Positions 2,082-56,116 of a stretch of 64,000 bases of DNA are shown piece after piece. Source of the stretch: Ascidiella aspersa (Eukaryota); the NCBI GenBank assembly GCA_963924565.1, contig OZ004614.1, positions 18,228,001 through 18,292,000 on the forward strand, given 5' to 3'. The position numbers were made by a program, and so were the translations under genes. Each line of letters opens with the position of its first letter. Positions within the stretch are counted from its first letter, which is position 1. Under the pieces are notes generated by a model, which was not told where the DNA came from, searched no databases, and saw only the letters and a list, made by a program, of their open reading frames with translations.

Positions 2082-2480
2082 ATACGATATTTTGGCCCTA
2101 AATAAAACACACACTGCACGAGACTTACAACAACATATATTTTTTTCTAAAACAAATACAATGATAATCGCACACACAAAACAAATCCCCAAAAAGGTGA
2201 CATTACTCTAATTAAAAACTGGCGTCCGATTTCATTGTTAAACACCAAATACAATAAAAGTAAAACTATAGCTAACAGACTAACAAACAAATAAAAAAAC
2301 GAAATTTCCTGCTTACAGAGAGATGTGGCTTACCCAATCGCCAACTCCAAGAAATACATTACAATATATCATCGGTAATTGAACATAGCAAAGAAAGAAA
2401 CTCCCCCCTTGCAATTATGTTAACAGGCTTTGTATACAAGGCTAACATCTAGTTTTTCCTTTTTTTTTTTTTATCTTATA

Positions 2481-2574
2481 TATTATACTCAGGTGTGCAA
2501 CTGAACCCTTATTGGGTCCAGTGCTACGTAGATTATTTTTAATCTCATGCGGTTGGATCATCATTCGTATAATA
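2481..2574 (-). ncRNA. Box C/D (kink-turn)-like structured RNA module at the 3' end of element 1
   Basis: Minus strand reads TATTATAC-GA-ATGATGA ... CTGA-GTATAATA: an 8-bp terminal stem with box C and box D, and internal hairpins AGATTA/TAATCT and CTGGACCC/GGGTTCAG. It ends ~8 nt before poly(A). Confidence 0.6.
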
Positions 2575-2702
2575 CATCTTCGGCCGAAACCGGTGCCGTA
2601 AGGTGGCGCAAAAGAGTAAGAGTAAGTAATTGGTAATTTTGTAGTACATCTTCGGCCGAAACCGGTGCCGTAAGGTGGAGCAAAAGAGTAAGAGTAAGTA
2701 AA
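2572..2702. repeat. ~72-bp tandem duplication in element 1 3'UTR
   Basis: TACATCTTCGGCCGAAACCGGTGCCGTAAGGTGG.GCAAAAGAGTAAGAGTAAGTAA occurs twice (~2573 and ~2645). Confidence 0.85.
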
Positions 2703-2738
2703 TAGGTACGTACAGTGATATATATAATAAGGTTAAAA

Positions 2739-5700
2739 TTACAGAGAGGGGAGCGCAGCAACGCCAACCGTCTCTTGGTCCATGAGATTTGTGTTTAAAA
2801 GTTCTGTTAGTTTTTCTAATCCTATTTTTATTTTTAGGTCCGAAGTAAAGGTTTGGAATTTGGATATGATTTCATCGGTAAGATTAATTATAAATTGGTT
2901 TTTATCCGTAGCATATTCATTTCTAGTTTCCAAAATAGTTTTGAATTTAATTATTGTTGTTTTTATGATTTGGAGGATTTTTAAATTTACGAAATTATTT
3001 TGGAAGCCTAATGAATTTTGATTAAAAAGGAGTGCATCCTCGTTTGGCAGGAAACTTTGATTAAAGTTTTGAGTTGTAAATAAATTTAAATTTTGAATTA
3101 TACTTTTAGTTATTTCGCAATCTAAAATTAAATGTTTGATGTTATCTTTTGTTGGATTGACAGAAGTTACAATTACGTTTGATTAATTGTCCTGTTTTGT
3201 TTTGATAGATTTGATGGATGGCGTTTTTGAAAGTCTCCCCAGCAGAAGGCACCTTGGGATATACGATAGGCAATTTGTCTTTCGTTGTTTGTGAATAGGT
3301 CTTTTGTTTTCGGTGTTTTGAAGAGTAGGGCTAGCCAGTTGATGTTTTGGTTGGAGTCTGTGAGTTTATGAATGTTTTTTGTTGCTGTAATTTGGTTTAG
3401 TGTCTGGTATAAATTTTTAAGTTTGGAGTTTTCCCAATCAAATTCTGGGTCATGGAGGTTAAGTTTATCGTATTGTGTTAATATATATTTCCATTTTGGG
3501 TTGGGTTCTAAGCGTTTTGGGTAGTTATTACTAAAGAGGTTGTTATTGATTCTTCTTATTTTAAATCCAATTTGGTAAAGCATCCAGTCATGAAAGATCT
3601 GGTTTGTTTCGCTAATATTTTTGATATATTTTATTCTTTCTAGTTGGGCTGCATTTATTTTATTACGTATGTTTATCATCTTAAGTCCGCCTTCTTTGTA
3701 GTCAGATTGTAGTTTAGTTCGGCTAAGGGGTTCTATTTTGAGTGGGGTCCATAAAAATTGATTTGCGACATGTTGTAAATATTTTATTGTTGTGTTGTCG
3801 GGGATAATTATTCGCGCTAGGTGTATTATTTTGGATACAATTAGGGAATTTATGATATTTATTTTGCCAAACATGGTTAAATTTAGGTGTTCGTATTGTT
3901 TTATTATATTTGTGATTTTGCCTTTTGCTGCGTTCCAGTTGATTGCGTTATTATTATTTGTTTCATTATAGATAATTCCTAGTATTTTGATTTGTTCGGT
4001 AAAGTATTGGTTGTAGTTAGCAAGTAAAAGCGATTTAAAATCTTGGACAAGCGTTAGTATTTTGTTTTTGTTTTTGTTTAATGTTTGGCCTGTAATTTTT
4101 TCATAATTGTCAAGTTCTATAAAAAGGTGTTTGATTGAATTTTGGTCTGATATGAAAAAGGTATTATTGTCGGCGTATTGTTGCATTTTAATTGTGTTTT
4201 TTCTAATTTTGATACCTTTGAATTCCGGATTGTTTTGGATTAATTCAGCTAACACTTGTCCAAGGCAAATATATAAAATCATTGATAGAGAACAGCCCTG
4301 ACGGACCCCTTGTTTTATGCTTATATTGTTTGAATTTTTGCCGTTAATTTCAATTTTACTGCTAATGTTTCGGTAGAGTATGGTGACCCATTTTATTGTA
4401 AATTGGTCGACTTTGAATTTTTTTAGAATTTGTTGAATTAGGTGGTGGTCCGCTTTGTCGAATGCTTTTTCAAAGTCTGTTACTAAGAGTGCCAATTTGT
4501 TATTTTTATCTTTACTATGTTCTATTGCCGAATTGATATTGTAATGAATTTCTTGCATTTGCCTATTTGTTACGCCGCATTTTTGTGATGTGTCAATTTT
4601 GTCGTCGAGTTGTGGCCTCAGTCTATTGGTAATAATTTTATTTAAAATTTTTTAATCAGTGTTTAGCAATGAAATGGGTCTCCAGTTTTTTATGTAATTA
4701 AGGTCGCCTTTTTTTGGTATTAGTTTTGTTATAGCCAATTTCATATTATTTGTCATTTCTTTTTTTAAATAAATGTTCGCGTATAATTCAATTAGGTCGT
4801 CCATTAGATAATTTTGAAATTTTTTGTAAAATTCGCTAGTAAGTCCGTCAGAGCCGGGGGATGAATTATTGTTTAAAGAGCTTATGGCTAGAATTATTTC
4901 TTGTTTATTTATGATAGAGGGAGGTTCTATGTTTTGGTCAAGGGATTTGCTTGCGCTTTTATTTCCTATTTTTTCTAGAATTTGATTTTGTTTGGTGCGG
5001 TCTATTTTATTTTCCGTTCCCCATAATTTGGTGTAAAATTGATGTATTATTTTTTCAATGTGATTTGGGTTGTTCGTAATTTGGCCGTTTTCATTTTTTA
5101 ATTGATAGATACCTGTTTTGAGTTGGTTTTTTTGTTCTAATGTGAAAAATTCTTTGTTTGGTTTTTCTCCATTTCCTATGTGTTTTATCCTAGAGCGTAT
5201 TTTTTGTCCTTCTAGTTTTTCCGTTTCAATAGATTTGAGTTTTTCAATTGTTTCTTTATATTGTTTATTTATGGTTAGGTCGTTTGCGGTTAGGGATTCT
5301 GTTAGAAGTTTTAGTTTTTGTTTTAGGGTTTTTTCAAGTTTTCGTTTTTGATTATTTTTGTATTGCGCATATTTTATTGTATGATTTTTTATTCGTTTTT
5401 TTAAATTTTCCCACCATATAAGTTTATTTGGTTCGGTATTTTCAAATTGATATTCTCTTATTAATTTTATTATCGAATCGCAGTAATATTTTTCGTCTAA
5501 CAATGAGTAGTTGTTTATTTTCCAGAATGATTTTCCCTGTCTGCGTGCTTTACCAAGTTGGATGATGAGGAATGGGGTTTTGAGTGGTCGGAAAAAGTGA
5601 CGGGTATGTAATGTGAGTTTTTTTGTTTGTTTATTATAGATTGTGTCGCATAAATTCTATCTATTCTAGTGGCAGATTTTGCTGTGACAAAGGAAAATTC

Positions 5701-6061
5701 TTTTTCATTTTTATTTTGGTGTCTGAAGGTGTCTATTAATTTAAAGAGCTTTTTAATTCGTATCCAATTTTGTTGATCCATTTTTGTTGTTCTGAGTTTA
5801 TTTATTGTGTCCAAATCATTATATATAAAATTAAAATCGCCTAGTATGATTAGGTTTTCTATATTTTGGTTCTTTATTTTGCTTTCAATTAGGTTTTGTT
5901 GTTTTTTCCTTGTGCTAGGGTTTCCGGATTTTAGGTACAAGTTGATTAGGGTTATTGTTTTGTTTTGTGTTTTTCCAGTTAGTTTTATAGATTGTATCCT
6001 GTTTTGTTCAAAAAAAATTTTTTGTTTATGCCTCGTATGTTTAAAGATGTTATTTTTATTT
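2739..6061 (-). pseudogene. Element 1 ORF2 (APE endonuclease + reverse transcriptase), disrupted
   Basis: Fragments 5515-5940 (IILGDFN, RIDRIY, FSDH), 4652-5503 (SPGSDG, WRPISLLN), 3173-4558 (DFEKAFD, GVRQG, YADN instead of YADD) and 2739-2933. The APE start (IKITSLNIRGINKK, ~6060) is followed by a deletion that removes the QETH motif. Confidence 0.9.
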
Positions 6062-6138
6062 CAGATTCAGACTCAGATTCTGCAATTAATTCAGGACCAA
6101 GAGGCGGTTTGAGAGAAAAGTGTGAGTCCCCTTGGTAG

Positions 6139-7268
6139 TCAGCTGTGGAGATCAGGATCTCCAGGTAAGTCTATTCTTCTGTTTGCGTCTCCTATTTTGG
6201 CTTTCTTTCTTTCCTGTTCTTCTTTGGGTGTCAGTTTTCTTCCTTTGTGTGGTGTTGATGGTGTGTTGTTTGGTGTTGGTTGAGTGTTTGTTGTTTCGTT
6301 TTCTTTTTGTGTTGAAGGTTGAGAATGTTCTTCTTCATCTGGTTGGTTGAGGGGGTTTGCATTTTCGTTTTTTTGGTCGATAAAGACTGAGGAGTCGATA
6401 TTTGTAAGTTCCAAAAAGATTTCGTTATTTGTTAGTTCATCGTCAGCGTCGTTGGCTGTATCGCTTACGATTCCTTGTTTCGAGGGTGGAGGGGTGGAGG
6501 TTTTTCTTTGTTTGTTTTTTTTATGATGGGGGATATAAGTCCCGATGGGCCTGGAAGATTGTTTTGTTGTCGTTCGCCTATAATATGGACAAGTCTTTCG
6601 TGAGTCGAGCCAGTTGTCAGGTCTGGAAAGTTGACAGGGTCAGGGTTGGTGGTAGCTCGTGTTGTTTGTGATTGTTGAAGAGTGCATCTGTTTGCCCAAT
6701 GTCCGGGTAGGCCGCATCGGTTGCATTTCGGTCGTGTGTTTTCTTGTCCAGGTTTGATGGTGCGTATTCGTTGTCCAGCTACAATGATTTGATCTTGAAC
6801 GTTTTGTATTTGAATTTTTTCGATAAATAGATGATAGAAGCCGTTTCTCACGTGAGGTATGTTTCTGTGAGTGCACAGTGTTATTTTTCTTAAAATTCCC
6901 CATTTATTATGTCTGACAATTTCCTCCATTTGTTCAAATTCCCATTCACAAGGAACGGGAACCAGTGTGATTTTATTTAAGAGTGGTGGCGGTTCCGTTA
7001 CTTGTAGTGTTATTTTTTCTCCTTGGTATTCAAAAATTGGTGTCGTTTGTAGAATTTGTTTTGTCTCGTTTTTATCAGTTTCGGTGAGGAAGGTTAATTG
7101 AAAAATTTGTTGATGACGGTTTAAAGTCCGGCATCCTGTGATGTTGTCGATTTGGTTTTTTAAAGGTTGATATTGTTGGATGATGCTTAGAAAGTCATCA
7201 ATTAAAAATTCAATATGTGAGTGTACCGTTATGTTGACCGATCTGGTCAAGGCAAAGGTAGATGTCAT
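6139..7268 (-). pseudogene. Element 1 ORF1 (gag-like nucleic-acid-binding protein), frameshifted
   Basis: ORF 6465-7268 has a CNRCGLPGHWANRC zinc knuckle and is homologous to element 2 ORF1. The low-complexity C-terminal part continues in 6139-6414. Confidence 0.8.
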
Positions 7269-7353
7269 GTTGTATTTTGTTTACATGCCACAGGGCATGT
7301 ACGATAGTGGACAAAAGATGGCAGAGAGAGAAAAGAATAGAGACTTCACTATG

Positions 7354-7536
7354 AGTCACTATGAGGCGCTAGAGAGCGCACACAACAAGTGATAAGAAAA
7401 AGGGCGGGAAAGAAAAGTGGCTCTATTAGTCACTTTTAGGCGCTAGAGAGCGCACACACACAAGAAAGGCGACAAAGAAAAAGGGCGGGAAAAAGAGTGA
7501 CTTTAGGAGTCACTTTGAGGCGCTAGAGAGCGCGCG
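7354..7536. repeat. Three ~74-80-bp tandem monomers in element 1 5'UTR
   Basis: AGTCACT(A/T)T(G/T)AGGCGCTAGAGAGCGC at ~7354, 7428 and 7508, with AAAAGGGCGGGAAA between them. Confidence 0.75.
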
Positions 7537-8244
7537 TGAAAAAACGACAAAGGACAAAAATTGGCTAGCGCTTCGCCCTTCATGAGGGCCTTGCTAGCGG
7601 CGGGGGCAATTATTTTTTTTTTATTTTTTTTCTTTTTTATGTTATTTATTGGTTAAGAAAGGAACTGAATATACAACGAACAAGATAAAATACAACGTAA
7701 AGTGGAGAAGGTAGAGTAATAATTTGGCGCTAAACAGCGAGGCGAAATGATAAAATAGAATAGGGCGAGGCTAAATAAGACTTACATTTAGTGGGTATAC
7801 AATATACATACATTTAATGTTACTATAACAGGCCTAGTGTGGCGGGTAAGCGAATATTGTCTAGGTGAACGTTTCCGTTTTGCGGTAATAACGTTAATAG
7901 GCTTACAGGCAATGGGAACACGTATATAATATTCCAGGTGTTAGTGAAGGTGTATGTAGGCAGCTTTACTGTTAAAGCGGGCTTGTATATGTGCATTTAT
8001 GTGAAGGTAGTATGTAGATAGCGTTGTTGCTACGCTCGAGCATATACGCAATGGTAGGAGCTTTATCGCTCTGATTTTAGTGTTCGGATTTTGTTATGTA
8101 TTTAGGAGTGAAGGTAGTTTGTAGTTGGGTTATGTTTTAACTCATAACTCTTAAATATGGCCAGTTATGCTGAATATATTTGGAGTACTGTTTAGACATT
8201 TGAGTTTACATGGTTAGCGCCGTACGCTCCTCTTGAGGAGTCTG

Positions 8245-8312
8245 CATTGGTTGGGAATCGAACCCAGGACCTCTGACTGTTGTGGCGGTGTTTGCAACCG
8301 TTTCGCCATTTA
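8245..8312 (-). other. tRNA-like Pol III A/B-box unit in element 2 3'UTR
   Basis: Minus strand TGGCGAAACGG (A box) ... GGTTCGATTCC (B box). No convincing full cloverleaf. Confidence 0.55.
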
Positions 8313-8351
8313 TCTTATATATGGTTTACGTTGAGATTACAGTATGGGTTG

Positions 8352-8424
8352 TTGTTGGTTGAGCGGGGAATCGAACCCGGGATCTTCGGCTTTACGAGCC
8401 GGCGTTTTAACCGTTAGACTACCT
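8352..8424 (-). other. tRNA-like unit directly after the element 2 ORF2 stop codon
   Basis: Minus strand GGTAGTCTAACGGTTAAAACGCCGGCTCGTAAAGCCGAAGATCCCGGGTTCGATTCCCCG: A box, anticodon-like stem CGGC/GCCG with a 7-nt loop, and T-arm GTTCGA. Confidence 0.6.
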
Positions 8425-11400
8425 AAGTCTGTGAGGTGGTGGGTCGATTTTGTAATTTTGAAGTGTTGTTGTTTGGTGTTGCGTCCATTTGTCTTTTAAA
8501 TTTGACTTTGATTTTCCATGTTATGCTGTTTGTAAAGCTCTGCGGGTCATCGAGATATTCGTTTGCGGCTGTGAGTTTGTTTTTTTCGCTTATTATTTTG
8601 TATTTTGTCAGTATTAGTAGTTTTTGATTTGTTGTGTTGTTTTCGAATTGTGTTGGGCTTTGATTGTACATTGTTGCAAATTTGTCCGGTAAAAAAGTGT
8701 GGTGATATTCGTTTGTTGTGAAACTGTTTAATTTATGGTAGATTTGTTTTGTGATTTTACATTCGTTGAGCAAGTGGTAGATGTTGTCCGAGTTTTCATG
8801 ACAGAAGTTACATCTGTTTATTCTTTGCTGTCCGTTTGACGTTGTCGTTATACCTCGTGATTTCCGGAAATCTCCCCATTTGAAAGCCTTGTGTGCCGTG
8901 AGATAGGAAGTTTCACGTTCCATGTTATTAAATATTAATTTGTGCTCCTTATTTGTCAAGTGTATATGCGTCCAATTGATTTGGTCTCGTCCCATTGTGA
9001 TTTCGGTCTTGATTGCTCTTTTGACTACCAGCTCGTTATATACTGCCCTCATTGTGTTGTTTTTCCAGTCAAAATCTTTATTTGTTTCTTGTATTTCGTT
9101 GAATTTTTTAATGATGTACATCCATGTTTCATTTGGCTGTGATGCTTTGGGATAGTGGTTTCCGAATAAATGGGGTATGATGTTTTTGCCTTTGGTTCCA
9201 AGTTGAAACATTGCCCATGCGTGGTACGGTTGTGTTGCTTTTGTGGTATTGTATAAAAATTTTATTTGCTCTAGTTGCGCCGCGGCTATTTTTGATTCCA
9301 GATCAACCATCCTAATTCCTCCTTGTTCCTTTTTATTGATTAGTTTCAGCCTCTTCATTGGTTCTATCTTTTTGGGGTTCCAGAGATAGTCGTAGAGAAT
9401 TTTGTTTATTTCTTTAATTATTTGTTTGGTTGGCCTTATAATTCTGGCGATATGTAAGAGTTGGGCTATCATTAGTGACTTTATTATTTGTGTTTTTCCG
9501 TAGATGGATAGGTTTAGGGTGGCGTACTGGTGTTGGATTGATTGTATTTTTTTTTTTGCTTTTATCCAGTTTATTTTCATGACGTCATTTTTTCCGTTAT
9601 ACCAAATTCCGAGAATTTTTATTTCTTCCTTCATGTGGGTTGGGTATAGTTCCGAGAGTTGATTTTTTATGAATGGTGTGAAAGCTATGATTTGTGTTTT
9701 TGCCATGTTTAGTTTCTGTCCAGTAATTTCTTCGTATTTCTTCATTTCTTTAAAGAGTTCGGTTGCGCTTTGTTTATCCGTTATAAAAAAGGTATTGTCA
9801 TCCGCGTATTGTTGTATTTGGATTTTTGTGGTTGTCAATTTGAAGCTCGTGATTTTTTTGTTCTTTTTTATTAATTTATTCAAGATCTCTCCGATGCAGG
9901 TGTAGAGAATCATACTTAACGGACACCCTTGCCTTAGTCCTCTCTTGATCAAGATTTCTTCCGTGGTTTGTCCGTTCACTTCTATTTTGCTCTTTATATC
10001 GTGGTATATTATTTGGATCCAATTGATTAGCGTTTTTGGTAGTCCGAAGTATTTAAGTGTTTTAAATATTAGTTCGTGATTAACGTGATCGAAAGCTTTT
10101 TCGAAGTCTGTTGTGATAATGGCTAGTTCTTGAGATTTTTGTTTTGCGTATTGTATTATTGCGTTTATGTTGTAATGGATTTCCTCTATTCTTCTGCCTT
10201 TAAAGCCGCATTTTTGATCCGTGTTAATTTTGTCTTTAATTCTGGTTTTAAGTTTCTTGGTAATTATCTTGGTTAGTAGTTTATATTCTGTAGTCAGTAG
10301 GAAAATTGGTCTCCAGTTTTTCAGTAAGTTTTGGGGTCCTTTCTTCGGCAGTAGTTTTGTTATGGCTATTTTCATTGATTGAGACATGTTCTTATTCATG
10401 TAGATGTTCATGTATAGTTCTTGTATGTCGTGTTTTAGTTGTTCCCAGAAGGTTATATAAAATTCGGTAGTTAAGCCGTCTATTCCTGGTGTTGAGTTTC
10501 GATTGAGATCCTTTATGGTTGACGTTAGTTCTGAGAGGGTTATATATTGTGATTCTTCGTTGTCGTCTGGCGTTTCTTGGCCTTCTGTGTTTAATATTAT
10601 TCCTTGTTCTGTTTTGTTTAGGTTATCTTCGCGTCCCCAGAGCTTATGATAAAAAGTGAAAATTTCTTGCTTTATTCCTTCGCTTGTTTTAATGATTTTT
10701 CCGGTTTCGTCTTTAATATGTTTAATAGTGGATTTTTCTTGTTGTTTTTTTTCGAGTTGTAAGAATTGTCTGTCTGGTTTTTCATTTTCTGTTTCTAGTT
10801 TGATTCTTGCGCGCACCTTTGCGCCGTTTATTCTGTGTTGTTCGATCGTTTTCAGTTTTTCGATAGTATGGAGATATTCTTTGTTTATTTTTTTTGTGTT
10901 TGTGTTTAAGTTGGTGTTTAGTGTTTTTAGTTGTTCGTTTAGATCATCTTCTTCTTTATTTTCTCTTTTCTTTGTTTCGATTGCGTAAGTGATTGTGTCT
11001 TTTTTAATTTTCTTTTTCAGATGTTCCCACCATTCCGTGAAATGGGTGAACTCGTTTTTCTGTGTTTGTATGTTTTGTATTGTTTTTGTTATATGTGTTT
11101 TGTATTCTAGGTCGTTTAAGATTTCGTTGTTTAATTTCCAAAAGGTTTTGCCGTGTTGTTTTGTTGTTGTTATTTGGATTGTGATGTATGGGGCTTGCGT
11201 GTGGTCGGATATTGTGTGCGGTATATGGTGTGCTTTGTTAATTATGAGTTTGTTTGTGGCTTTGTTGTAGATCCGGTCAATGCGTGTTGCTACCGTTGCT
11301 GTTACTCTTGTGTATACTTTTGAATTTGGGTGTTTTTGTCGGAATGAGTCACATAAGTTGTAGGCTTTTTTAGTTTCTTGCCATTGTTTGTTGTCCTTTG

Positions 11401-11926
11401 TGTTTGTTGTTTTGGGATTGGTTGTATCGCTGTCGTTCTCAACAAAATTAAAGTCACCTAATATGATAATGTCTTTGTTTCGTTCTTGTTGCTGTAAGTG
11501 ATGATGTAATTGATTTATTTCGTGTGTTCTTTGTACTATTTGGGAATTTGCTTGACCGGATTTGAGGTAGACATTAATTATGTGTATTTTTTGGCGTTGG
11601 GTGTTGTCGTTTTTCTTTGTTATTGTGATTTCTTGTATTCTGTTTTGTATTATTATGTTGTGTTCAATTGTCCAATTTTGCATTAAGTTTTCTTTGTAAA
11701 TGATCGCGGTTCCGTGCCAGAAGTGTTTTTGCTGTTGGTCTGTTTGTGAGTTAAGCTCACATTTTAAATGTTCTTTTTTAAGCCAATTTTTGAGGACGTG
11801 TTCGTTTAGTTTATGTGTTTCCTGTATGGCGATGATGTTTATGTTGTGTTTGTTTATAAAGGTTCCTAGTTGGTTTAGCTTGTGTTGTATGCCGTTAATG
11901 TTAAGTGTGCAGAGTTTTAGCTCCAT
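8423..11926 (-). CDS. Element 2 ORF2: APE endonuclease, reverse transcriptase, C-terminal CCHC zinc finger
   Basis: 1167-aa ORF with TLNING, QETH, GDFN, RIDR, SDH, PGIDG, DFEKAFD, GLRQGCPLS, YADD and CNFC..HLLNEC. Confidence 0.95.
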   Translation of the reverse strand: MELKLCTLNINGIQHKLNQLGTFINKHNINIIAIQETHKLNEHVLKNWLKKEHLKCELNSQTDQQQKHFWHGTAIIYKENLMQNWTIEHNIIIQNRIQEITITKKNDNTQRQKIHIINVYLKSGQANSQIVQRTHEINQLHHHLQQQERNKDIIILGDFNFVENDSDTTNPKTTNTKDNKQWQETKKAYNLCDSFRQKHPNSKVYTRVTATVATRIDRIYNKATNKLIINKAHHIPHTISDHTQAPYITIQITTTKQHGKTFWKLNNEILNDLEYKTHITKTIQNIQTQKNEFTHFTEWWEHLKKKIKKDTITYAIETKKRENKEEDDLNEQLKTLNTNLNTNTKKINKEYLHTIEKLKTIEQHRINGAKVRARIKLETENEKPDRQFLQLEKKQQEKSTIKHIKDETGKIIKTSEGIKQEIFTFYHKLWGREDNLNKTEQGIILNTEGQETPDDNEESQYITLSELTSTIKDLNRNSTPGIDGLTTEFYITFWEQLKHDIQELYMNIYMNKNMSQSMKIAITKLLPKKGPQNLLKNWRPIFLLTTEYKLLTKIITKKLKTRIKDKINTDQKCGFKGRRIEEIHYNINAIIQYAKQKSQELAIITTDFEKAFDHVNHELIFKTLKYFGLPKTLINWIQIIYHDIKSKIEVNGQTTEEILIKRGLRQGCPLSMILYTCIGEILNKLIKKNKKITSFKLTTTKIQIQQYADDNTFFITDKQSATELFKEMKKYEEITGQKLNMAKTQIIAFTPFIKNQLSELYPTHMKEEIKILGIWYNGKNDVMKINWIKAKKKIQSIQHQYATLNLSIYGKTQIIKSLMIAQLLHIARIIRPTKQIIKEINKILYDYLWNPKKIEPMKRLKLINKKEQGGIRMVDLESKIAAAQLEQIKFLYNTTKATQPYHAWAMFQLGTKGKNIIPHLFGNHYPKASQPNETWMYIIKKFNEIQETNKDFDWKNNTMRAVYNELVVKRAIKTEITMGRDQINWTHIHLTNKEHKLIFNNMERETSYLTAHKAFKWGDFRKSRGITTTSNGQQRINRCNFCHENSDNIYHLLNECKITKQIYHKLNSFTTNEYHHTFLPDKFATMYNQSPTQFENNTTNQKLLILTKYKIISEKNKLTAANEYLDDPQSFTNSITWKIKVKFKRQMDATPNNNTSKLQNRPTTSQT

Positions 11927-11971
11927 GATAAAAGTCGATAGAGGAAAAACGATAAGGTTAGAATAAACGGT

Positions 11972-13528
11972 TTAAAAAAGTTCGCTTTCAAAGTTTATCG
12001 GGTTGTTATGGTTTTGCGACCCTTTTAGTGGGGTCTGCTCGCGGTTTATAAGCTTTCGTTTCGGGTCCTGGTCCTGCGGCGATAATTGTGCCGCAGACCG
12101 TTTTTGACTGTTTTTTCCTGGTTGTTGTTCTTCTTCTGTTTTGTTATCGTTGTTTTCGTTTTCTTTCTTTTCGTTCGCCTGTTCGATTGGGAGAGGAGGT
12201 GTGTTGGGGATCAGGATGTGGGATGGGTAAGAGGAGGAGGAGGAGGTTGAGTTTGCGGAGTAGGAGGAGGAGGAGGAGGGGTGGGTTAGGGAGAAGAAGT
12301 GATCGGAGGTTGATTGGATTCTCTCGTTGTGGTTGTCTTCATTGCTCGGTTTCGGTTGATTCTGTTCGATTACTTGAGTCGGTTTTTCGTTTTCCTTTTC
12401 TATTGCTGTGTCCAGTTCCTTGAGCGTTTGTAGGGAGTCGTCGGATTCGTGAATAAACAAATGACCGTCCGGGTCGTCGTTCATTTGTTGTTCTTCAATT
12501 GTTGAAATGTGTTCTTTTTCGCTGTTTTGTTCTGGAGGTGGAGGAGGTGGTGGTGGCGGTGGTGGTGGTTGGCCGTCGCCTTTCTTTTGATTTTGTTGGA
12601 ATTGTCGCAGCTTGTGTATTCTTTTTTCCGCTTCCTGCTGTGGGCTTATGTCTATCCGTTTATTCAAAGTAATTTGGTTTTCATGGTTTTGTATGATTTT
12701 TGATATATCTATTGTTCCACCTGGGTTAAAACGATTTTTTGGGGTTGAGTTCTTCTTGTGTAGGTGGGGGAATTCATTTTCCTGGCGTAGATTGAGGGGG
12801 TCTTCTTCTTCTGATCTGTTTATTTGTTTCTCGATGGATGAGGCTTCCGGGCACTCTTTCATGAAGTGCCCGGGTCGGAAGCAGAAGCGACATACTTTGT
12901 CTGCCGGGCAGTTGTTGGCCCAGTGGCCGCGCTCGCCGCAGTTTCTGCATATTGGGCCGAAAGATTCGCCTGGTTTAACGGTTTGGATGCGTTGATTCGC
13001 TACGGTAATTTCTGGTTTGATGTTGCTTGGGTTGGCTGCGTCCAGGAAGATATTTACGTAACCATTGTAGATCTCTGGCCGGCTTTTATGAGTACAGAAG
13101 AAGGTTTTCTTTATTTTTCCCCATTGCAGTTTATTTGCAATGTCTTTTAGATGGTCCTCTGTCCACTCGAGCGGAACTGGGAAGAGGGAAACTTTGAGGA
13201 GGGGTTTGTCTGGTTCTGAAGACAGCAATTTAATAATTTGATGGGATGGAAGTTTGTCCATTTTACCGTTTTCCAGTTCGATGTGGAGTTTCTCTTTATT
13301 ATATTTTTGGCGGTGTTGGTTCGTTTTGAATGTTAATTGAAAGATTTTGAGTCTCCGATTGACTGTACGGGCTCCGATAATGTTGGGGTTGTAAGGTTAG
13401 GGCATTGTCCATGTCGAACAGTTTAAGAATATTATGTTGAAGTATTCGATATCCTGTATTTGGACGTTAAGCGTCCGCTGTATCCTGTAGTCCGGTCCTG
13501 TTGCTTTTAAGGGGCTGTGGTGGTCCAT
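11972..13528 (-). CDS. Element 2 ORF1 (two CCHC zinc knuckles); N-terminus apparently frameshifted
   Basis: ORF 11972-13261 has CRNCGERGHWANNC and CRFCFRPGHFMKEC. Homology to element 1 ORF1 (IQRTLNVQI.., NIIGARTVNRRLKIFQLTF) extends upstream to an ATG at ~13528 across apparent frameshifts. Confidence 0.8.
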
Positions 13529-16438
13529 TCTTTTCGTTTGTGGTATGTTAACGGGCGAGCGATGATTTTAGAGAGAAAGAGGGGACAGAAGGGCCTGAGA
13601 GATCGTGCTATAGTGAGTGTCCCTGTACTCACGGTAGGAGTAGAAGGAAGGAAGGAAACAAAGGGGCGCGGAAGCGATACGAGTTGGAGCTGGCGAGTGT
13701 GTCGTGGTTTATTTTTTAGTTGTTTCAGTATCGGCGAAAGAAGCAAAGAATATAGGCGGGGAAAATGCGAAAAAAATGTCGTTTGCGGGGAAGACGCCTA
13801 GCGTCTATATGTTAAGTGTTTTTAGTTCAAGAGAAATGGCGGAAAAAGTTTGCCGTACAGGGGGTGACGTGTGCGTGACGTCACTTGTGCGAAAAAGGAT
13901 GTGGCGAAAAAATATGCAAAGTACAAAATCAGTGATCTCCATTAGATGGAGCTAAAGAGGCCAAAAAAATGCCAGGAGCTTCGCTACAAAATGGAAAACG
14001 GGAAGGCGAAAAATTCTCTTAAGTACAGCGGAGGAGTCCCTGTGACGTCACCCGGCGCACTTAGGTACGAAAAAGCTAACACTAAGACACTAAGACACTA
14101 ATAATACACACACAGGGTAGCCACTAGAAGGCTCCAAAGGGTTAGACGATAGCGTTTATTTAGACCAAGTTAAAACACTTGGTGGTACACGAGTTAATAG
14201 GCGCAAGAGGTTCGAATGATGTGGCACTATGCAGTCAAACTACACGTTAGGAGGCGCTCTTTCGCTTAGGGCGAAGAGTACGATTTACAGCGATTTACAC
14301 AACAAGAGATAGGAGTAGTACACACAAAGGCCCTACAACAGCCTGCCTGCCGTCCCTGTAACTGTTTGTTACAGCGGATGCTGACTAATACCTTCTAGCA
14401 AGGTCTGACACAGATGAAGTCGCAGTTTTTTACAATGGCGGTAGGTCTGAGACTGGCACTATTTGGTTGATAATTCAGTTATTAGGGCCGTTTGCGATAT
14501 TTTGACCGGTTTAACTGGGAAGTTTATCCCTGTAGTCACTATCAGACCTTTTTTTTATCGCAAAGACAAGTATGTGAATATTGCTTTTTCCAGTCATCAA
14601 ACTGTCCTGGCCATAAATTGTTGTAATTTACCCCTTTACCATTCCCCGAATTGAAGACTGGATTGTTATTTAAGTTAGTTCACGATTTTAGCTTGTTGTC
14701 ACACTCAGAAAATCTTTCACGAGAATTTGGTTGGCAAGGTGTCTGTGGTATGTTTTTGGGGTAAGCAGATGCTGCTTTCCAAGTGAAGTAACAGGTAAAA
14801 GTTTATTTTCTACCTTTAGTGCTCGCAGATTGAATTAGTTTGTTATATGCAGTTTTTATTAAGTTGTGGGATTCTTTAACAGTGTTTAAAATTAGTTGAA
14901 ATAAATAATAATCATTATCTTATAAAAAATATTTATACCTTTTATATAGGTTTGGAATCAAAACAGACTAATCTGGAAATATAATTTGTACGAGGGAAGA
15001 TTCAAACAAGCCTGCATTAAAAAAACACTTTTAATCATGTTCTTGATGTCATATACTACAGTTCACACCTAACAAAAAGTCAACAGTTTTGCTTGTTTTA
15101 TTAAACTTCATAATATGCATTTATTTTTTGTAAGATACTAAATAAAACAAAATTATACAGTTGATCTAAACGCTGCGAATTAAATTGATGCTTGCAAAAC
15201 CACAAGTAAAAAACATTCTACTAAATTTCATATTAAAATCAGTACAATATTATTCTAGAGATTTGACTACTGTTTGAAGAATGATAAGATTCATTGTAGT
15301 TGTGACTTGTTTGTAACATTGGAAACTGACAAACTTCTTTCATTGTCCTGGCGTTCTACCACAAATATACGGTTTCTTTGTCAAGATGTAAGATTTCAGT
15401 TCTGTAGCTAAAATATTCTTTGGAATTCAGCAAGTGCCTGATTTTTCAGCCAAATGCACAAGCTTGTATGATAGTGTCTGCTGTAGGGCTATATTTATTC
15501 AACTTTTGTAAAACTACATGGGGTCACTTGTAAAAAAGGCTATAATAAGATAACATTTACAAAATTACACCTATTTCAAAACAATATAACAGTATAACAG
15601 TACAAATAGTTAGTTGTTTTAAAAGGATGTGGATCACTCGAATATTTTCCTAAGATGTGAGGTATCTTGTATTAAAAGGTGTTAAATTAATGTTGAGTAC
15701 GAAAGAAATATCTGGTGAAAATTTCAAGTGCACAAGCAATACAATGTCGTTTAGAATACCACACAGAAGATATATTTTTGAATTAAAAATGTCTGTTAAA
15801 AAGTGTGAATGAAACAACTTGCAAAATGCAAAGTTATAGGTTGAAAAACAGCAGTACCACAAAAAACTACATTATTCCCGCATAAAAATGCTTATTTCAG
15901 CTTTGTTTGGAACTAGCTGACCTTAAATATTCTAATTACATTTTATTTATAATTTAAAGTTGATGCAAATGCTTCCTGGTTTTAACCGAAACCCTATTTT
16001 AAGTACAAAATTAAAGTTGTATGTAACAGTACATGTTTAACAAATTCTCGCTACCAGTATTTGAAGAAATTGCGAATAAAAAATGATTATAGATATTAAT
16101 TAAAGTTAACTTAAAACGAATAATTAGCTTCAACGAATAACCATTGGAAAAGATAGGCGCTAGCAACTGTTCATCTGACTCACGCAATGCCTCTAGTGGT
16201 GGAAACCATTCCATTGGCTTAAAAAACCCCGCGGCGAAATCTTAAGACGGCGAAGCCCTGGTCAAATTTTCTGTAATATAGCGCCTCTTAGTGGCCACTG
16301 CACTCTTGTCCTTTTTCCTTCATTTTGCTCCTTAACGTCGTCTAGCGGAATTTGCCCATCATCCTCATTTCTTATGATTTATCATCGTACTCACCACTTG
16401 TAATTTATTGCCAACAATACCTTACCATGCCTTACTTA

Positions 16439-18590: not shown

Positions 18591-18649
18591 GCCCCCCCCA
18601 ATGATGAGCCGCACGCCTCCCCAATACGGCCGTGGCAAACACAAAAAAC

Positions 18650-38526: not shown

Positions 38527-41500
38527 ATGCCCGCATACCTAAAAGTCATAACGCTAAACGTCGCGGGCATACACAACCCCCGTCGACGTTTAGCCATTTT
38601 CGAACTCCTAAAGTCCACTCGAGCAGATATAATCCTGCTTCAAGAGACCCACTCCACCCCACAGGACGAGGCCACCTGGGCCCACGAGTGGACCCCCGGC
38701 CCCGCCCTTTTTAACTCCGCCCCCTCCGGAGGCTCTGCCTCTAAGGGAGTAGCCATCTTGTTTAACTCCCCCACCTTCACCCCAACAAACGTCTTCTCTG
38801 ACTTAACCGGCAGAACCTTATCATGTGACATCACCAACTTGGACCCAACTATCCACATAACTAACATATACGCCCCATCCGGCAATAGAACCGCAAACAC
38901 CAAATTCTTTGAAAATCTATACCCATACCTCACCTCCCCAAACCCGATAGTTTTTGCAGGAGACTTCAATTCTGTTTTACAACCCCACTTGGACATTTAC
39001 CCCCCAAAATCAGCCCGCCATATAAACAAATCTCTAGCCACACTCATCGCCACAATACAATTAATTGACCCCTATAGAACTGCAAACCCTGACACCCAAA
39101 TTTTTACAAGAAGACAAACGAACACACAATCACGCATAGATCGATTCTACATCTCGTCAGATATCATAGCCACCAACTATTCAGTTACCCCTTTTTCCCT
39201 CTCCGATCATGACCAGGTCCTAATAACCATTAATATACCCCATACGCCCCCCAACAGGCCACGGCCTTTGGAGAAATAACATCCAAACTCTGAAACACCA
39301 AGATTTCAAAACCAAACTTCAAGTTAAACTCCACTGGCTAACGACATTAAAACACGACTTTGACCCGCTCAGTTTCTGGACCCTAATAAAGGAAAGAGCT
39401 GCTACCCTCCATAAAATAGTACATAAAGAGAACAACATAACTAACTCCCGGGAAATAACCCAGAAACATTTGGACTTAGCCAAATTAAGGGAGGAAATGA
39501 ATCCCAATAACTACCAGCAAACCCTTGTTAAGTTCCAGAATCTCAAGCGTGAATTAAACAAACATTATATATCAAAAGCACGATACGATCTGTTAAAAGC
39601 AAAAGCAAACTTAATAGAAAACAAAAACCTCTCTACCAAAACCCTCTACAAACTAGTGCTACCTAAAAAACATTCCAGTCACATTAAAGAACTACTAGAC
39701 GAAAATTCATTACCGTATGACACCCCCGTTGAACTATGCAACATCGCGAAAAAATTCTACGGAGAACTTTATGCACCATCACCCCCCACATACCACCACC
39801 TAAACCACTTTACCGATAACCATATACCCATTCCAGACCAGTTAAACACGGCACTAACCCAACCCATTACCCTTATAGAAATCCGACAAGCAATTAAAGC
39901 CTTTCCATCTGGTAAGACCCCCGGGCCCGATGGGCTAACTATCGAGTTCTACAACGAGTGCTGGGATTTAATCGGACCCCACCTCCTCCCCGCCCTCAAC
40001 CATGCATACTTCTCCCCCTCTCTCCCTCCTACTTTCGTAGAAGGCGCAATAATACTAATCCCCAAAACCACAGATGCCAACACCCTCTCGAACTTCCGCC
40101 CCATCTCACTTTTAAATACAGACCTTAAAATTCTTAACAAAATTCTCAACACCCGCATCAAACCCCATCTAAAACATTTTATTTCCCCCAACCAGCATGC
40201 CCAAACCAACAAAAATACCTCCACCGCCTCCAACCTCCTCCGCGACCTATATCATTTCTCATCCCAGAGCGACACCCACTCCTTCTTCATATCGCTCGAC
40301 TTCAAAAAAGCCTTTGACTCCATAACCCATACCTGGCTCTCCCACTCCCTTATTTCCCGTAATTTCCCCCCGTGTTTTGTAAACTACCTGACCGCTACCC
40401 AAACCTCGGCTTCATCCCAAATTCTAATTAACGGTCACCCCTCCCAACCCGTGGCGATCAGGAGAGGAGTGAGACAAGGCGACCCGCTAAGTCTCACCCT
40501 CTTCCTGATCGCCCTCGACCCTCTCCTCCAAAGTATCCAAAACAACCCCTCCATTGCCCCCTCCCCTGCTCCCATCCGAAACCCCCCTAAATTTATAGCA
40601 TATGCAGACGACGTCACCCTCACCCTTGCGCACCACCAATCCCTGCCTGCCTTATTTGACACCTTATCTAAATTTCACGACACCTCTGGCCTCTCCCTCA
40701 ATCCCCTTAAAACCAAAGCCACTTACAACCGCTCCCTCCCCCCGCCCTTTCTAAATATCCCCACCATAAATTGGAACCCCCTAGCCATATTTCCCCTCAA
40801 CATACCAATTGGCGACCCCACCCAAATTACCCAAGCATGGAACACAGCATACACCGAATTTGTAAACAAGACCTCACTAATCAAACACCCCTTTCTCACT
40901 TTTGACACTAAATCTATTCTATCCAAAACCCTGCTTCTCCCTCACTTCTCCCAACTAGCCCACGTCTACTCCCCCCCGGACCGCATCAAAAACAAAATAA
41001 ACAAGAAAATGTGCCAATTCATCACCGGTCCCCGCAACCCCACCATCCCATTGGACAAGCTCGCGGCCAGCCGCCCACACGGAGGCTACTCCATTGCCAA
41101 CATTCCCCTCTATTCGGACCTTTTTCTTATAAGACAAGTAGGCGCATACTTGCGACACCGCTTAGCTGACACCCCATCCGACACACAAACCCAAATAATC
41201 GAACACCAGCTAGGTATTCCATTGGCCCGAAAATACGAGCTCCGTTTCAAAAATACACTCCCCCATACCATTTTCCCTTCCCCACACTATAAGCAAATCT
41301 GGAACATCATTTTAAAATATAACCCGACCCTAACCGAAATAATATCCCCCAAAATAAAACCCTTATATCTCCGACTTACAACCCCACATCAGTACCTCCA
41401 CCCCACCAACCAAAACCGAAATCCCCCCAACTGGCCACTCATACACCATCCCATGCTTCCCTCCTACCTTAAAACATTCAACTACAAACTGGCATCAAAT

Positions 41501-41956
41501 GCAATCCCTGTCAAATGCCACACAGTCCCAAATATTCCGTCACTCCAACCAAACTGCCTCCTTTGCCACACACGCTATGAGTCGGATGTCCATCTTTTTC
41601 ATGAATGCCCACAAATACAACCCCTCCTAAATCATGTCAGATACATACACACCGCCTTCACATCCCACCAAACAGATTTCTTCAATCACCACTCCCACAT
41701 CACATTCACCACACCCCTTCAAACCCCCTTCCCAAACAACAACCTAATAACCCTTCTCAACACTGTCTTACACCATACTATATGGAAAACCAGAATTAAA
41801 AAAGCCATATTAGAAACCCCTGACCCAAACCCCACTCCGCCGCAAAAACTGATAACATCCTTCAATCAATCAATACGTATGAAATATAGAATCGAACAAG
41901 CAAAAACTACTCCAACATATATTGATCTATTCGAAAAGTTAATCACTTTACTATAA
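38527..41956 (+). pseudogene. Family A ORF2 (APE-RT), copy A1, +1 frameshift
   Basis: An extra C in the run at 39238-39241 relative to copy A2 splits the ORF into 38527-39279 and ~39240-41956. It may be a homopolymer error. Confidence 0.85.
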
Positions 41957-42531
41957 ACCAAGCTAGATCACTCTCACCCCACACCCTCCACCCTAGTTCC
42001 CGCCCGACTCCCTTTCTGTCCATTATTGTTTTCATTTCTTAACTTCTAATCTACCAATACAGAGAAACCAACGATTTCAGAGAGGTAAAAGTAACCATCG
42101 CCGCCATTTTGTTTTTAGAGACGCCATTTTGTTTTTCCGACGGCCATTTTGTTTTGTGATTAAGGCCCTTTTTAACTGAAATTGACAATTTCAAAGTGTG
42201 TCCCTACCCTCTGCAACCACAAAAGCATATCCTCGAAAGAGGGGAGCGAGAAATAAACCCAGAAATATCTTTTTTCCTACTCGTTGTTGTTTTTCCTTTT
42301 CCTTTCGTGCCAACATGCATACTCCCCTTGTAGGAGGAGTAAAGGCCTCTTATTTGTTTTTATTTTAGTTTTGTCACTGCTTAACGGTTTACACATCCCC
42401 TGCAGTCATGACACCAGCGTGCTGCACCCAGTTTCCCCTGTTATTTTTCGCCATACTTTTCGCCGTCCGCTACCAAAATTACACACTGCTCGTTGTTCAC
42501 ATCCGAAACGAATATCAATAAATAACCAATA

Positions 42532-42609
42532 AGGGCAATGATGAGCCCAAACCAAAGGGGGGCCCTAGCAAATTGCTAGCCCCAAAAACCCTGAGGTCAC
42601 TGAGCCCTC
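42532..42609 (+). ncRNA. Box C/D kink-turn-like module at the family A 3' end (A1)
   Basis: AGGGC-A-ATGATGA ... CTGA-GCCCT directly before poly(A). Confidence 0.7.
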
Positions 42610-42615
42610 AAAAAA

Positions 42616-42681
<66 letters not shown>

Positions 42682-46265: not shown

Positions 46266-47797
46266 ATTTCGGTTTGCTTGTCAGCTGAACCAAAAAACGG
46301 CTCTTTTCAGAGCCACCCATAACTTTGAAAGAGACAAACCCGATCGCTTTGCAAAAGGCTGCATTTTGTGTGTTTTGCTAATCGTATTGTTGCTCTTTTC
46401 ATTCCCACATTAGTCAACGAGCGATTGATTTACTGTAAGTTCGAAATAGGTGGAATCGAGCCCAAACTGAGAAAAGTTGGGCCCGAAAGCTTTCAAGTGC
46501 TAAACTATTTTCTAACTAAAATTATATTTCAAAAAAAACAAAACAAAAAAACAATGACGTTCTGGCACTTGTTGAGAAATGTAGGTAGGGTAGGGTAGGA
46601 TGGAGAGGCTAGCAGAAACAACGGGTCGGACCGGCGAAGGAGGCAGGCGGTCGGTCGGTGGAAAACGAAAAGAAACAGTTGGTGTTGTGCGGCCCCGAGA
46701 CAGCCTTAGCTAGGCGGGCAGCACGTTACGTTAGTCAATTAGGAAAAAACAGAAAAGCTGATTTTGCAATTTGCCAACAGGCAGGCAGGCAAACACATTA
46801 TTGAGAATGAGTTTTGTTTCTTTTCGGTGGTTCAGTTTCGGCAGTCTCAGTTAAGGGCTTGTTGCCTGGCTCGAACAGCAGCAAAAACTGTTCTAAAGGC
46901 GGTCCCTTGGCTGACTGCCTGTGCTTAGGCGACAAATCGCAGGGCTTTAATTTTTCGTGTACACGGTCTCGGTGTGACCCAGCCTCGAAAGCAATATCAC
47001 CGGGTAGTCTTGGGAGGCCCAAATCGATCGCGCGTTGGCGTTTTGGCAACTGAACACCTCGAAAAGGGCAGTCGTTCAGCTAAAGCCGAACGTTTCGAGC
47101 GTTGCTGACGACGGTGTGTCCTACTCAGCGACTTGATAGTCGACGGGTGCGCGCTACAGGACCTCAGGCGCTGGTAGACAAAATTTGAAGCGCCACCTCG
47201 GTCGGGCAGCCAGGCAAGCGAGCCTCTTGCTAAAATCAAAAGCACACCAAAGTGCAAGCAGTCGGCAGCAAACCTTTTCGGCATTTCACCGATTTCGCTT
47301 TGGTACGCAAACCACGTACAAATGGCCAGCGTGTGCTGTGTCGTCATAAATCCTTTATTGTTTCTTCGTTGTCGAAGAGAAGTTGATTGAATTAGCAAGC
47401 AAATTGCCATTTAGAAGGGATTGTCTATCCCTGGGATTGTCTATCCCTGCGCTTAAGCTTTGCTTGACAACCAGACAACTGAACATATTTATACTGTCAG
47501 ACAGTCGCAAATTACATCTGCGACTTATTTTGCTGCTACCAAGTCGGGTAGTGAAAAGTTAGTTCTGCGTAAAGACGCAACTTGGATTACTCTCGCCATC
47601 TGCAACCAACTTGGAATTGGATTAGCGCGGCTGCGCCATCAACCCTGCAACCAGGTGTGAACTTTCTTATTTCCTGAGTAACATTGCTATATAAACTGCC
47701 CTACCGGCCAACTGACAAGCCGCCATTTTGTCAAACCTGGCACTTCGGGAAATTTTTTGAAATTCTGCGGGAAATTTAGATTCCGTACCTCGCCGAA

Positions 47798-49081
47798 ATG
47801 GCCCCTACCACGAGTTGTCCTTTAACGGAAGCTGAACTCAAAAGCCTGATTAATTTCGATCGTTCTACAGAGGTAGAAGCTCAGTTTACCCCAGCCCACT
47901 CTCGCCCCGCCATTTATGACCTTCTGGCTCACCTTCGCTTTAAGTTTACCAACCTAGAGGGGCTGACACAACTTCCTAATGGTCGAGTGCAATTCGTTTG
48001 CACGACCAAAGAAAAAGCTGTAGAGCTAGCTAACCTCCTAAGACCCCATGCACGCTATGCAGAAACATTTAATCCAGATACGATAAAAGTCCGTCTCAGC
48101 TACGTGCCAATAAGACTCTCTGACAAGGCCTTAGCCCGGATATTCTCCGCAAAATTCGCGACGTGCCTCCGATCAAGAGAGATGCGCGACTCCTATGGTT
48201 ATAAGAACGGCAAACGTGAACTAACAGTGGTCAATTCTGAAATTATGCAAAGCCCCCTTCCGAAAGAGGCATGGATAGGTCCATTCAAAATAGGAATCCA
48301 CTACGATGGTCAACCCCCATTTTGCAAATACTGCAAAGCACAGGACCACGAGGTGGAGCATTGCACAAAATTAAAAGAGAAAAAGAAGCAAATTAAAGAA
48401 AAAGAAATACTAGATAAAAAAATAGCATCAAACATCCATCCTAACCATAACCAATTCAATCAGGACCCAATATTTAGTGCCATATTAGAAAACATGGACA
48501 TCTTCCCCAACCTGGCAGGACCCACAACCTCTAATATTTTCCTTGCGGGAACTAGACCCGAAAACCATACCAAAACTACCAGTACCCCCCAACCCGGAAC
48601 CATCCCCCCACCTGCCCACACGATTGTCCAATCCCAACCAGCAGTGACCGACAAAGTTGAACCTCACCACGATGACAACATCAATCGCATCGTCCCGATT
48701 CACATGAATATCCCCTCAGACTTAGAGTCGGACGAACACGAAGATGAAGACGACCTTGAAGAAGCCGACAACCACAACGAGAATGGAAATAAATGCGAGT
48801 CGAAAGACTTGCAGGAATTTCGAAAAGAAAAGCAACCAGAAGACCGCCCACCACCTCCCCCCAAACCCACACCTTCTTACGCATACCCCGGACTCCCAAA
48901 ACCATCCATTGTTGACCCTGCAAAAAGAGATAGATCGGGTGACTCAACTCCCGACCGTAAACCCAAAAACCCCAAAACCCAAAACACCATCTATGAATGC
49001 CCCCAATGTTTTACGTCCTTTATTGATGACATACAAAATTGTGACTGCGTCATACCCACACTCCCAGATTCCACAATCTAA
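47798..49081 (+). CDS. Family A ORF1, copy A2
   Basis: 427 aa, nearly identical to A1 ORF1. Confidence 0.9.
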   Translation: MAPTTSCPLTEAELKSLINFDRSTEVEAQFTPAHSRPAIYDLLAHLRFKFTNLEGLTQLPNGRVQFVCTTKEKAVELANLLRPHARYAETFNPDTIKVRLSYVPIRLSDKALARIFSAKFATCLRSREMRDSYGYKNGKRELTVVNSEIMQSPLPKEAWIGPFKIGIHYDGQPPFCKYCKAQDHEVEHCTKLKEKKKQIKEKEILDKKIASNIHPNHNQFNQDPIFSAILENMDIFPNLAGPTTSNIFLAGTRPENHTKTTSTPQPGTIPPPAHTIVQSQPAVTDKVEPHHDDNINRIVPIHMNIPSDLESDEHEDEDDLEEADNHNENGNKCESKDLQEFRKEKQPEDRPPPPPKPTPSYAYPGLPKPSIVDPAKRDRSGDSTPDRKPKNPKTQNTIYECPQCFTSFIDDIQNCDCVIPTLPDSTI

Positions 49082-49209
49082 CCCCCTCCCCCCCCCGCCC
49101 ATCCTTGTCGTTGATATATCCTTATTTATTGTTTGTGTAACTTAAATTTAGTAACTGTAGCCTATAACTGTTGTTTTATTGTAATCATGCAACTACCGTA
49201 AAATGTAGA

Positions 49210-53213: not shown

Positions 53214-53291
53214 AGGGCAATGATGAGCCCAAACCAAAGGGGGGCCCTAGCAAATTGCTAGCCCCAAAAACCCTGAGGTCACTGAGCCCTC
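53214..53291 (+). ncRNA. Box C/D kink-turn-like module at the family A 3' end (A2)
   Basis: Identical to 42532-42609. Confidence 0.7.
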
Positions 53292-53300
53292 AAAAAAAAG

Positions 53301-53342
<42 letters not shown>

Positions 53343-56055: not shown

Positions 56056-56116
56056 TTCGTGAAAAATAGGTCTTTTTAAGCGTTATTTTGCACACTATTT
56101 CTGAAAATCCCAGTCA

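Follow-up and report, generated by a model that had tools for sequence, protein, structure and literature searches.

Why should the RNA of a retrotransposon end in the boxes of a snoRNA? That question is raised by the window (the whole stretch of 64,000 nucleotides that was analysed), inside which lie five L1/Tx1-type elements with ORFs, C and D on the minus strand and A1, A2 and B on the plus strand. The original prediction was that element C, a decayed and distant relative of families A and B, ends as they do in a box C/D-like module beside its poly(A). At issue are whether that module is real, whether it is shared by descent, and what it might do for the RNA that carries it.

Element C has the ORF1, the APE-endonuclease-RT ORF2 and the A tail by which the L1/Tx1 clade is recognized, with its zinc-knuckle ORF1 and its endonuclease-RT ORF2 in pieces (Pfam RVT_1, Exo_endo_phos and zf-CCHC). 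ORF1 is apparently broken by a frameshift, the endonuclease domain is partly missing, and ORF2 has frameshifts near 5600 and 3200 and an in-frame TAA at 4654-4652, ahead of its stop at 2741-2739 (minus). Its database relatives are distant, with best matches of 30-37% identity among the candidates scored; in ORF2 it is 42-44% identical to element D, whose own 3′ end has an AATAAA and an A-rich tail. No target-site duplication was found for element C or element D. The 5′ region of C (7332-7533) holds a tandem repeat, 80% identical. In D, ORF1 and ORF2 share a frame and are divided by a single TAA at 11974-11972 (minus), and two GTGACGTCA sites lie in the long 5′ region (13875-14051); the same word occurs in the H4 promoter into which B is inserted.

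Families A and B insert site-specifically into histone genes, which from 17 kb onward form tandem five-gene units of ~4.7 kb each. The two family A copies, 99.87% identical, lie 12 nt before the histone H1 start codon, in the H1 5′UTR, and family B has entered a histone H4 promoter, where ~2-4 nt are duplicated. The best named relative of the A ORF2 is a Phallusia mammillata protein (52%), Clavelina proteins scoring lower, so that an ascidian host is probable. Literature searches over titles and the starts of abstracts, with Repbase Reports and most subscription papers outside their scope, found no report of histone-targeting ascidian elements, and no L1 relatives turned up in plasmid or phage collections. 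At the other end of the window, the 5S rRNA array (~184-nt spacing, copies 74-90% alike) is probably decayed. Element C lies ~380 nt from it, and between the array and the element C tail sits a relic, at 2152-2400 (plus), of a C-related RT region, with 69% DNA identity to 4753-4503 in the opposite orientation.

Table 1. Positions of the elements, their terminal modules and associated features in the window
Feature	Position	Strand	Remarks
5S rRNA array	1-2081	minus	11 diverged copies above the Rfam cut-off and 2 partial
Element C	2460-7600	minus	decayed L1/Tx1-clade non-LTR retrotransposon; 5′ boundary approximate
C, poly(A) tail	2460-2472	minus	A13; first A 16 nt past box D, 5 nt past the stem arm
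C, 3′ arm of closing stem	2478-2488	minus	overlaps an 11-nt word also in the element D 3′ region (8322-8312)
C, box D	2489-2492	minus	CTGA, then G at k-turn position -1n
C, internal hairpin 2	2497-2524	minus	core 2521-2514 with 2508-2501, 5-nt loop; core pair probabilities 0.99-1.0
C, internal hairpin 1	2524-2550	minus	A-rich loop within the core 2546-2530; core pair probabilities 0.8-0.95, pairs farther out uncertain
C, unpaired GA and box C	2558-2566	minus	perfect box C (ATGATGA, 2564-2558); 4-nt bulge
C, 5′ arm of closing stem	2567-2577	minus	11 nt, last base C at k-turn position -1b; 2577-2567 pairs with 2488-2478
C, tandem duplication in 3′UTR	2570-2701	minus	2701-2642 and 2629-2570, 58/60 identical
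Element D	7610-13396	minus	sister of C with open ORFs (13396-8423); negative control, no C/D module
Family A copy 1 (A1)	36700-42680	plus	
A1 module	42532-42608	plus	5-bp stem, 3-nt bulge, perfect boxes
Family A copy 2 (A2)	47383-53340	plus	
A2 module	53214-53290	plus	
Family B	54230-59912	plus	
B module	59784-59855	plus	5-bp stem as in A1; altered last base in box C (ATGATGC); box D
Third family A copy	63730 onward		apparent start, at the window end

The terminal module of element C

Every part of the predicted module is present on the minus strand at the end of element C (Table 1). The closing stem pairs as described but is longer than the 8 bp first given, with 11 bp, one of them G-U, at pair probabilities of 0.91-1.0. 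The 65 nt between box C and box D hold two hairpins, both recovered in the predicted fold, and the bulge is indeed one nucleotide longer in C than the 3 nt of A and B. For 2478-2577 the fold has a z-score of -4.76, and for the coordinates first proposed -4.38, with 0/200 shuffles as stable in each case. The second copy of the duplication in the 3′UTR extends into the 5′ arm of the stem, and a short A4 follows the first duplicated unit. There is no AATAAA in the C 3′UTR, and no second copy of the module occurs within the 64-kb window. Just before box D, at 2500-2495 (minus), stands TTGCAC, the word of U1 loop II, maybe by chance.

Might the whole arrangement be an accident of an AT-rich 3′ end? 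The stem arms are AT-rich and of low complexity, and the motif was picked after those of A and B had been seen. However, the shuffling of 3′UTRs that had been proposed as the test of the argument against chance comes down clearly on one side. Among 20,000 dinucleotide shuffles of the 268-nt C 3′UTR, none with perfect boxes yields a stem of at least 4 bp; with one mismatch allowed in box C, 44 reach 4 bp, 17 reach 5, 1 reaches 8 and 0 reach 11. The corresponding counts are 0/8,000 for family A with perfect boxes and 7/20,000 for family B with one mismatch allowed. Moreover, a strict scan of the window (stem of at least 5 bp) returns three matches, namely A1, A2 and C, each adjoining an A tail; they are the 3 of the 14 RTGATGA sites in the window that close with a box D and such a stem. 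A looser scan adds one 4-bp, 234-nt match at 5562-5795, away from any tail. With the fold z-score and a position that A and B predict, chance is refuted at the sequence level, and we give it next to no credence.

Separate gains or one inheritance

The modules of families A and B can be aligned with each other. ORF2 identity between the two families is 57%, and 110/281 fourfold sites match, against 33% expected by composition; the sole significant alignment of their 3′UTRs is the module plus the upstream AATAAA region (E 2e-9; next best 0.32), with 13 identical nt at each end and 58/82 columns invariant. Since this is the only significantly alignable part of the 3′UTR, while silent sites are near saturation, the A/B module is under selection. 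The best fold of both interiors is one long interrupted hairpin, not stabler than shuffles (26/200 and 15/200 as stable), and in the minimum-energy fold of A the closing stem is not formed. In a hand-fitted structure over two sequences, 3/18 pairs change on both sides, which 53/500 shuffles reach, so that covariation is unsupported. The sequence just before box D differs between A and B; in A, the last 9 nt there may resemble the reverse-strand sequence of the animal 28S rRNA 5′ end (its complement), a likeness that is not kept in B. Without reaching significance (E 2.4), the histone H1 3′UTR (18599-18610 and its five repeats) has 12 nt in common with family A around box C.

It is for the relation of C to A and B that the original prediction, a conserved 3′ RNA module in this retrotransposon lineage, is not supported. 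What it said of C as a third instance, independent in sequence and at the same position as in families A and B, stands. The single lineage finds no support: in a quick RT tree of 28 rows, chosen from a 60-row set, C pairs with D (SH-aLRT 98) and A and B pair with the Phallusia protein (100), and forcing A, B and C into a clade on this quick 28-row tree costs 219 log-likelihood units (AU p 5.6e-28). The C and D side of the trees holds U1-, U2- and 5S-inserted elements, with weak deep support and no named Repbase elements included. The carriers are thus not monophyletic, and 803 nt of 3′ sequence from element D, on the same side as C, are free of any box C/box D pair. As D keeps open ORFs without the module, the module is not required in the C/D clade.

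A module ancestral to a wide L1/Tx1 lineage, diverged between C and A/B and lost in D, or else passed on by an old exchange of 3′ ends, would account for the same position in the same host, for the similar box C to box D distance in all three modules (66-76 nt), and for two details seen by eye in all three: box C is followed by a short CC/ACC-like linker, and ACC pairs with GGT. Apart from the tree, it has to face the interiors. The C interior resembles those of A and B at the level of shuffles (766/1000 and 963/1000 score as high), and the predicted topologies differ, two hairpins in C against the one interrupted hairpin of A/B. A covariance model of A and B did not report C at E up to 10, a weak test in that a model from two sequences has low sensitivity. 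Neither a clade of carriers nor homologous interiors, the marks of sharing by descent, was found for A, B and C, and we consider common ancestry quite unlikely. Since the A/B module has the same design as that of C and an unrelated interior, the device probably arose on two occasions in this host; two gains probably fit the pattern better than one inheritance, a preference that we infer over loss in D. Selection on C's own module is likewise inferred, C being a single decayed copy.

Short matches between the 3′ regions of C and D conflict. Words of 9 and 14 nt are collinear between them (D 8390 and 8322; 3/1000 shuffles, 14/1000 without the tail), and the whole local alignment under this word-match comparison is reached by 30/2000 shuffles. 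Under another scoring, the duplicated unit of C best matches D 7722-7696 (27 nt; 1/1000 and 27/1000 for the two copies), and for the whole C 3′UTR against that match the figure is 56/1000. Under both, D is without the module at the matching place. One idea is that C may keep a remnant of a tRNA-like piece of D, with the module in place of the T-arm. There are two such pieces in the D 3′ region, at 8428-8356 and ~8310-8245 (minus), directly past the ORF2 stop; the first scores 33.7 bits as an Rfam tRNA with a broken acceptor stem, and the second aligns to the first. ARAGORN called no tRNA gene, neither piece included.

L1/Tx1 loci from outside the window were taken from prokaryotic genome contigs, in which 162 stretches matched, 145 were confirmed and the best 80 were kept, giving 67 loci; these eukaryotic-type loci are evidently host contigs binned into MAGs. 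In 1,217,460 bases of them (both strands; from the best 80 of 145) there are no strict modules and 13 relaxed ones, none adjoining an A8 tail. We picked 24 outside 3′ ends by eye, from ~18 families, excluding loci cut before the tail and redundant copies, and a C/D module was found in 0/24. Among the UTRs, a strict or one-mismatch module occurs in 0/23 and a very relaxed match in 1/23 (L020), and at one 3′ end (L022) the boxes are in the wrong order. The A/B covariance model gave nothing better than E 0.66 on the 67 loci. Since these loci are distant from both lineages of the window (whole-RT identity to D of at most about 32%), what they test is deep ancestry alone; hence the module is not general to the L1/Tx1 clade, and its place of origin is not set by them. 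Eukaryotic contigs with Tx1-like elements in prokaryotic MAG records are L002, L003, L010, L012, L021, L022 and L034-L067, and Tx1-like elements in MAGs occur in U5 arrays, in U2 genes, in 5S genes, beside tRNA arrays and in head-to-tail arrays.

A snoRNA-like end, probably not a guide snoRNA

The terminal features of a box C/D snoRNA are there: box C (RUGAUGA) and box D (CUGA), perfect in C and A and with one change in box C of B, and a terminal stem (11 bp in C, 5 bp in A/B) that sets them in the register of a kink-turn. What 15.5K reads is kept in each of the three modules, namely the tandem G-A pairs, the U-U, the G-C and a C-G at -1b/-1n. Such a C-G is common to most k-turns, and k-turns of the box C/D type fold only with a protein of the 15.5K/L7Ae family (PMC5579392). 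The likeness to the terminal motif bound by 15.5K/Snu13 extends to overall size. However, the present motif lies within a polyadenylated retrotransposon RNA, and the internal features of a guide are missing. No D′ followed by a separate C′ was found in A, B or C with 1 and 2 mismatches allowed, and the hairpin-filled interior of C is mostly paired, with at most about 8 unpaired nt before box D. In Rfam, no snoRNA family reaches its gathering score anywhere in the window; the C module has no snoRNA match at E up to 10, the family B end has none, and the family A end draws SNORD25 at E 3, its 15.6 bits falling short of the cut-off of 39 and owed mainly to the boxes and stem. In view of the absent D′-C′ pair and free guide, the module is best called a snoRNA-like end and not filed as a guide snoRNA; an rRNA-methylation guide of the ordinary sort it probably is not.

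Three other classes were compared. A snoRNA retroposon (snoRT) would have its own target-site duplication and would start at the mature snoRNA 5′ end; no duplication was found, and the module is contiguous with the C 3′UTR. A SECIS element, which also calls for an apical AA motif and for an in-frame UGA to recode, was rejected, as the folds have no long helix directly above a G-A quartet and the ORF stops checked are TAA or TAG. A hammerhead was rejected by eye, box C being ATGATGA and closing with box D.

The same evidence bears on two other explanations. In one, the C module is a passenger, a host box C/D snoRNA acquired as a retrocopy, or by a template switch from an oligoadenylated snoRNA, and without any role. 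snoRNA retrocopies with A tails do exist, often beside other retroposons (PMC1687206), and C is a single copy whose sister D has no module and whose interior is unrelated to A/B. Still, nothing marks off an insertion, there being neither a target-site duplication of its own nor a long A tail ahead of the module; the 5′ arm begins inside the duplicated piece of C's own UTR, and the 3′ arm overlaps the word common to D, weak as that match is (14/1000 shuffles). The missing D′-C′ pair and the few free nucleotides before box D also speak against it, and in reported L1 chimeras it is the 5′ end that bears the small RNA (PMC13174262). The passenger reading leaves retention between A and B unexplained. 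We regard this as unlikely.

In the other, the element would be a host gene for a short C/D RNA, trimmed out, for instance, after cleavage near the upstream AATAAA, and acting in trans. The size and ends of the module suit a mature C/D RNA, and the SPA pathway offers an example in which trimming beyond a weak poly(A) signal goes as far as a snoRNP (PMC11028025). But complementarity to 5S, U1, U2 and U5 (the snRNAs being from other hosts) and to five histone mRNAs is at shuffle level, the longest runs being 5-8 nt, the interior is structured, and A and B differ just before box D. This reading is very improbable.

A possible role at the 3′ end, and its setting

The reading that we prefer, with a probability of about 0.48, is that the module is a cis-acting C/D kink-turn, probably gained twice, that binds 15.5K/Snu13 and defines or protects the 3′ end of the RNA. 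The last 100 nt of the element C RNA would fold into the kink-turn with its 11-bp stem and two hairpins and would bind the host 15.5K/Snu13, perhaps together with NOP58 and fibrillarin, much as a snoRNA end does; the bound protein would then shield or define the RNA 3′ end beside the poly(A) where reverse transcription starts. The module may also route the element RNA through Cajal bodies or nucleoli. Its source could be capture of a host C/D RNA or convergence. Mature C/D RNAs are trimmed up to 5 nt from box D (PMC4914119), and the tails of A and B, which start 6 nt past box D, come close to that distance. In SPA RNAs and sno-lncRNAs, exonucleases are stopped by the C/D snoRNP that is bound there (PMC11028025), and a TRAMP-like complex has been proposed to oligoadenylate the precursors of snoRNAs (PMC1687206). 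Several points count against a snoRNP acting in cis: the 4-nt bulge of C, its tail 16 nt past box D, and the changed base in box C of B. Moreover, nuclear retention by a snoRNP would be expected to conflict with translation of ORF1 and ORF2.

Family A may be read from the histone promoter, because its start appears to carry a diverged piece of the H1 5′UTR. Ordinary polyadenylation is not the rule at histone promoters, and a snoRNP-set end could give the read-through RNA a terminal poly(A) for priming. Routing by way of Cajal bodies toward histone loci would be a further guess. A second route may be available to A and B, whose AATAAA lies 8-9 nt upstream (9 nt in A1, 8 and 0 nt in B), in that the folded module would shorten the distance from this signal to the cleavage site; in both families the tail starts at a CA just past the module, and in A1 the poly(A) begins 1 nt past the stem.

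That last arrangement also speaks for an explanation without any snoRNP, in which the module serves for polyadenylation or for 3′ recognition of the stringent type; it would be read by the element's own ORF2p or would fold the AATAAA near to the cleavage site, and the boxes would do no more than kink the RNA sharply. In LINEs, some L1-clade families among them, ORF2p usually lands on conserved 3′ stem-loops (PMC3747384). The C 3′UTR, however, offers no AATAAA for such folding, the protein dependence of box C/D-type k-turns noted above speaks against boxes that only kink, and unrelated ORF2 proteins (about 25% identity) are not expected to select the same full boxes. We consider it improbable.

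The 3′ ends known from LINEs are bare poly(A) or hairpins that a protein of the same element reads, and what we describe is, from its sequence, a known RNA motif in a new setting with a predicted function. The literature searches, in which "C/D" cannot be used as a term and which had the scope given above, found no report of a C/D motif ending a LINE. The nearest relatives each differ in some way. The snoRTs (PMC1687206) and platypus snoRTE/PlatSINE1 (PMC7245038) likewise join snoRNA-type sequence to an A tail and are moved by LINEs, but they are non-autonomous and begin with the snoRNA, whereas here an autonomous element with two ORFs has the motif as its 3′ end, kept between diverged families. 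The small RNA is at the 5′ end in other fusions as well, namely L1 chimeras with U3 or U6 (PMC13174262) and SINEU with Tx1 partners (PMC4494074). sno-lncRNAs and SPA RNAs (PMC11028025) also use a snoRNP motif as end protection on a long RNA, but in SPAs the snoRNA forms the 5′ end, and sno-lncRNAs are without poly(A), whereas here a C/D motif and a poly(A) end a coding RNA of a mobile element. The target-specific elements of the Tx1 clade (Tx1, Keno, Kibi and Koshi) share with the present elements the endonuclease-RT ORF2, the A tail and insertion in or near multicopy genes, and the available part of their description (PMC4494074) names no histone-gene target and no C/D end. The 3′ stem-loops of stringent-type LINEs are likewise conserved structures directly before the 3′ tail, but those are simple hairpins read by ORF2p (PMC3747384), and here both snoRNP boxes are present.

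If the preferred reading is true, selection would have kept a snoRNP-binding motif at the end where priming takes place, a use of host RNA machinery that would be new for a mobile element. That the motif appears in two separate lineages would then indicate a real advantage. The motif suggests that mobile elements can borrow host snoRNA-binding proteins to finish or protect their own RNA. Two GA dinucleotides would then offer a short, mutable handle on 3′-end making and on target finding in histone and small-RNA arrays. In a broader version, a 3′ end that mimics a snoRNP evolved twice in autonomous L1/Tx1 elements of this host. The box C/D machinery recruited by it would make the RNA, protect it and carry it by way of Cajal bodies or nucleoli, close to the histone and 5S arrays in which or beside which the elements lie. 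We find this doubtful; if true, such an end would be one case of a wider small-RNA mimicry in L1/Tx1 3′UTRs, the other cases meant being the tRNA-like pieces of D and the U1 loop II-like and T-loop-like hairpins of U1-inserted elements.

The latter are Tx1-like elements among the outside loci that end at the 5′ end of a U1 snRNA (L007:4497-4760, L009:9558-9990 and L009:3596-3910), with the whole U1 gene at L007 and its first bases only at the two L009 ends. They have a tRNA T-loop-like hairpin ~150-160 nt from the end and, within 80 nt of it, one or two TTGCAC loops like U1 loop II, a pattern suggesting that these elements may mimic their target RNA.
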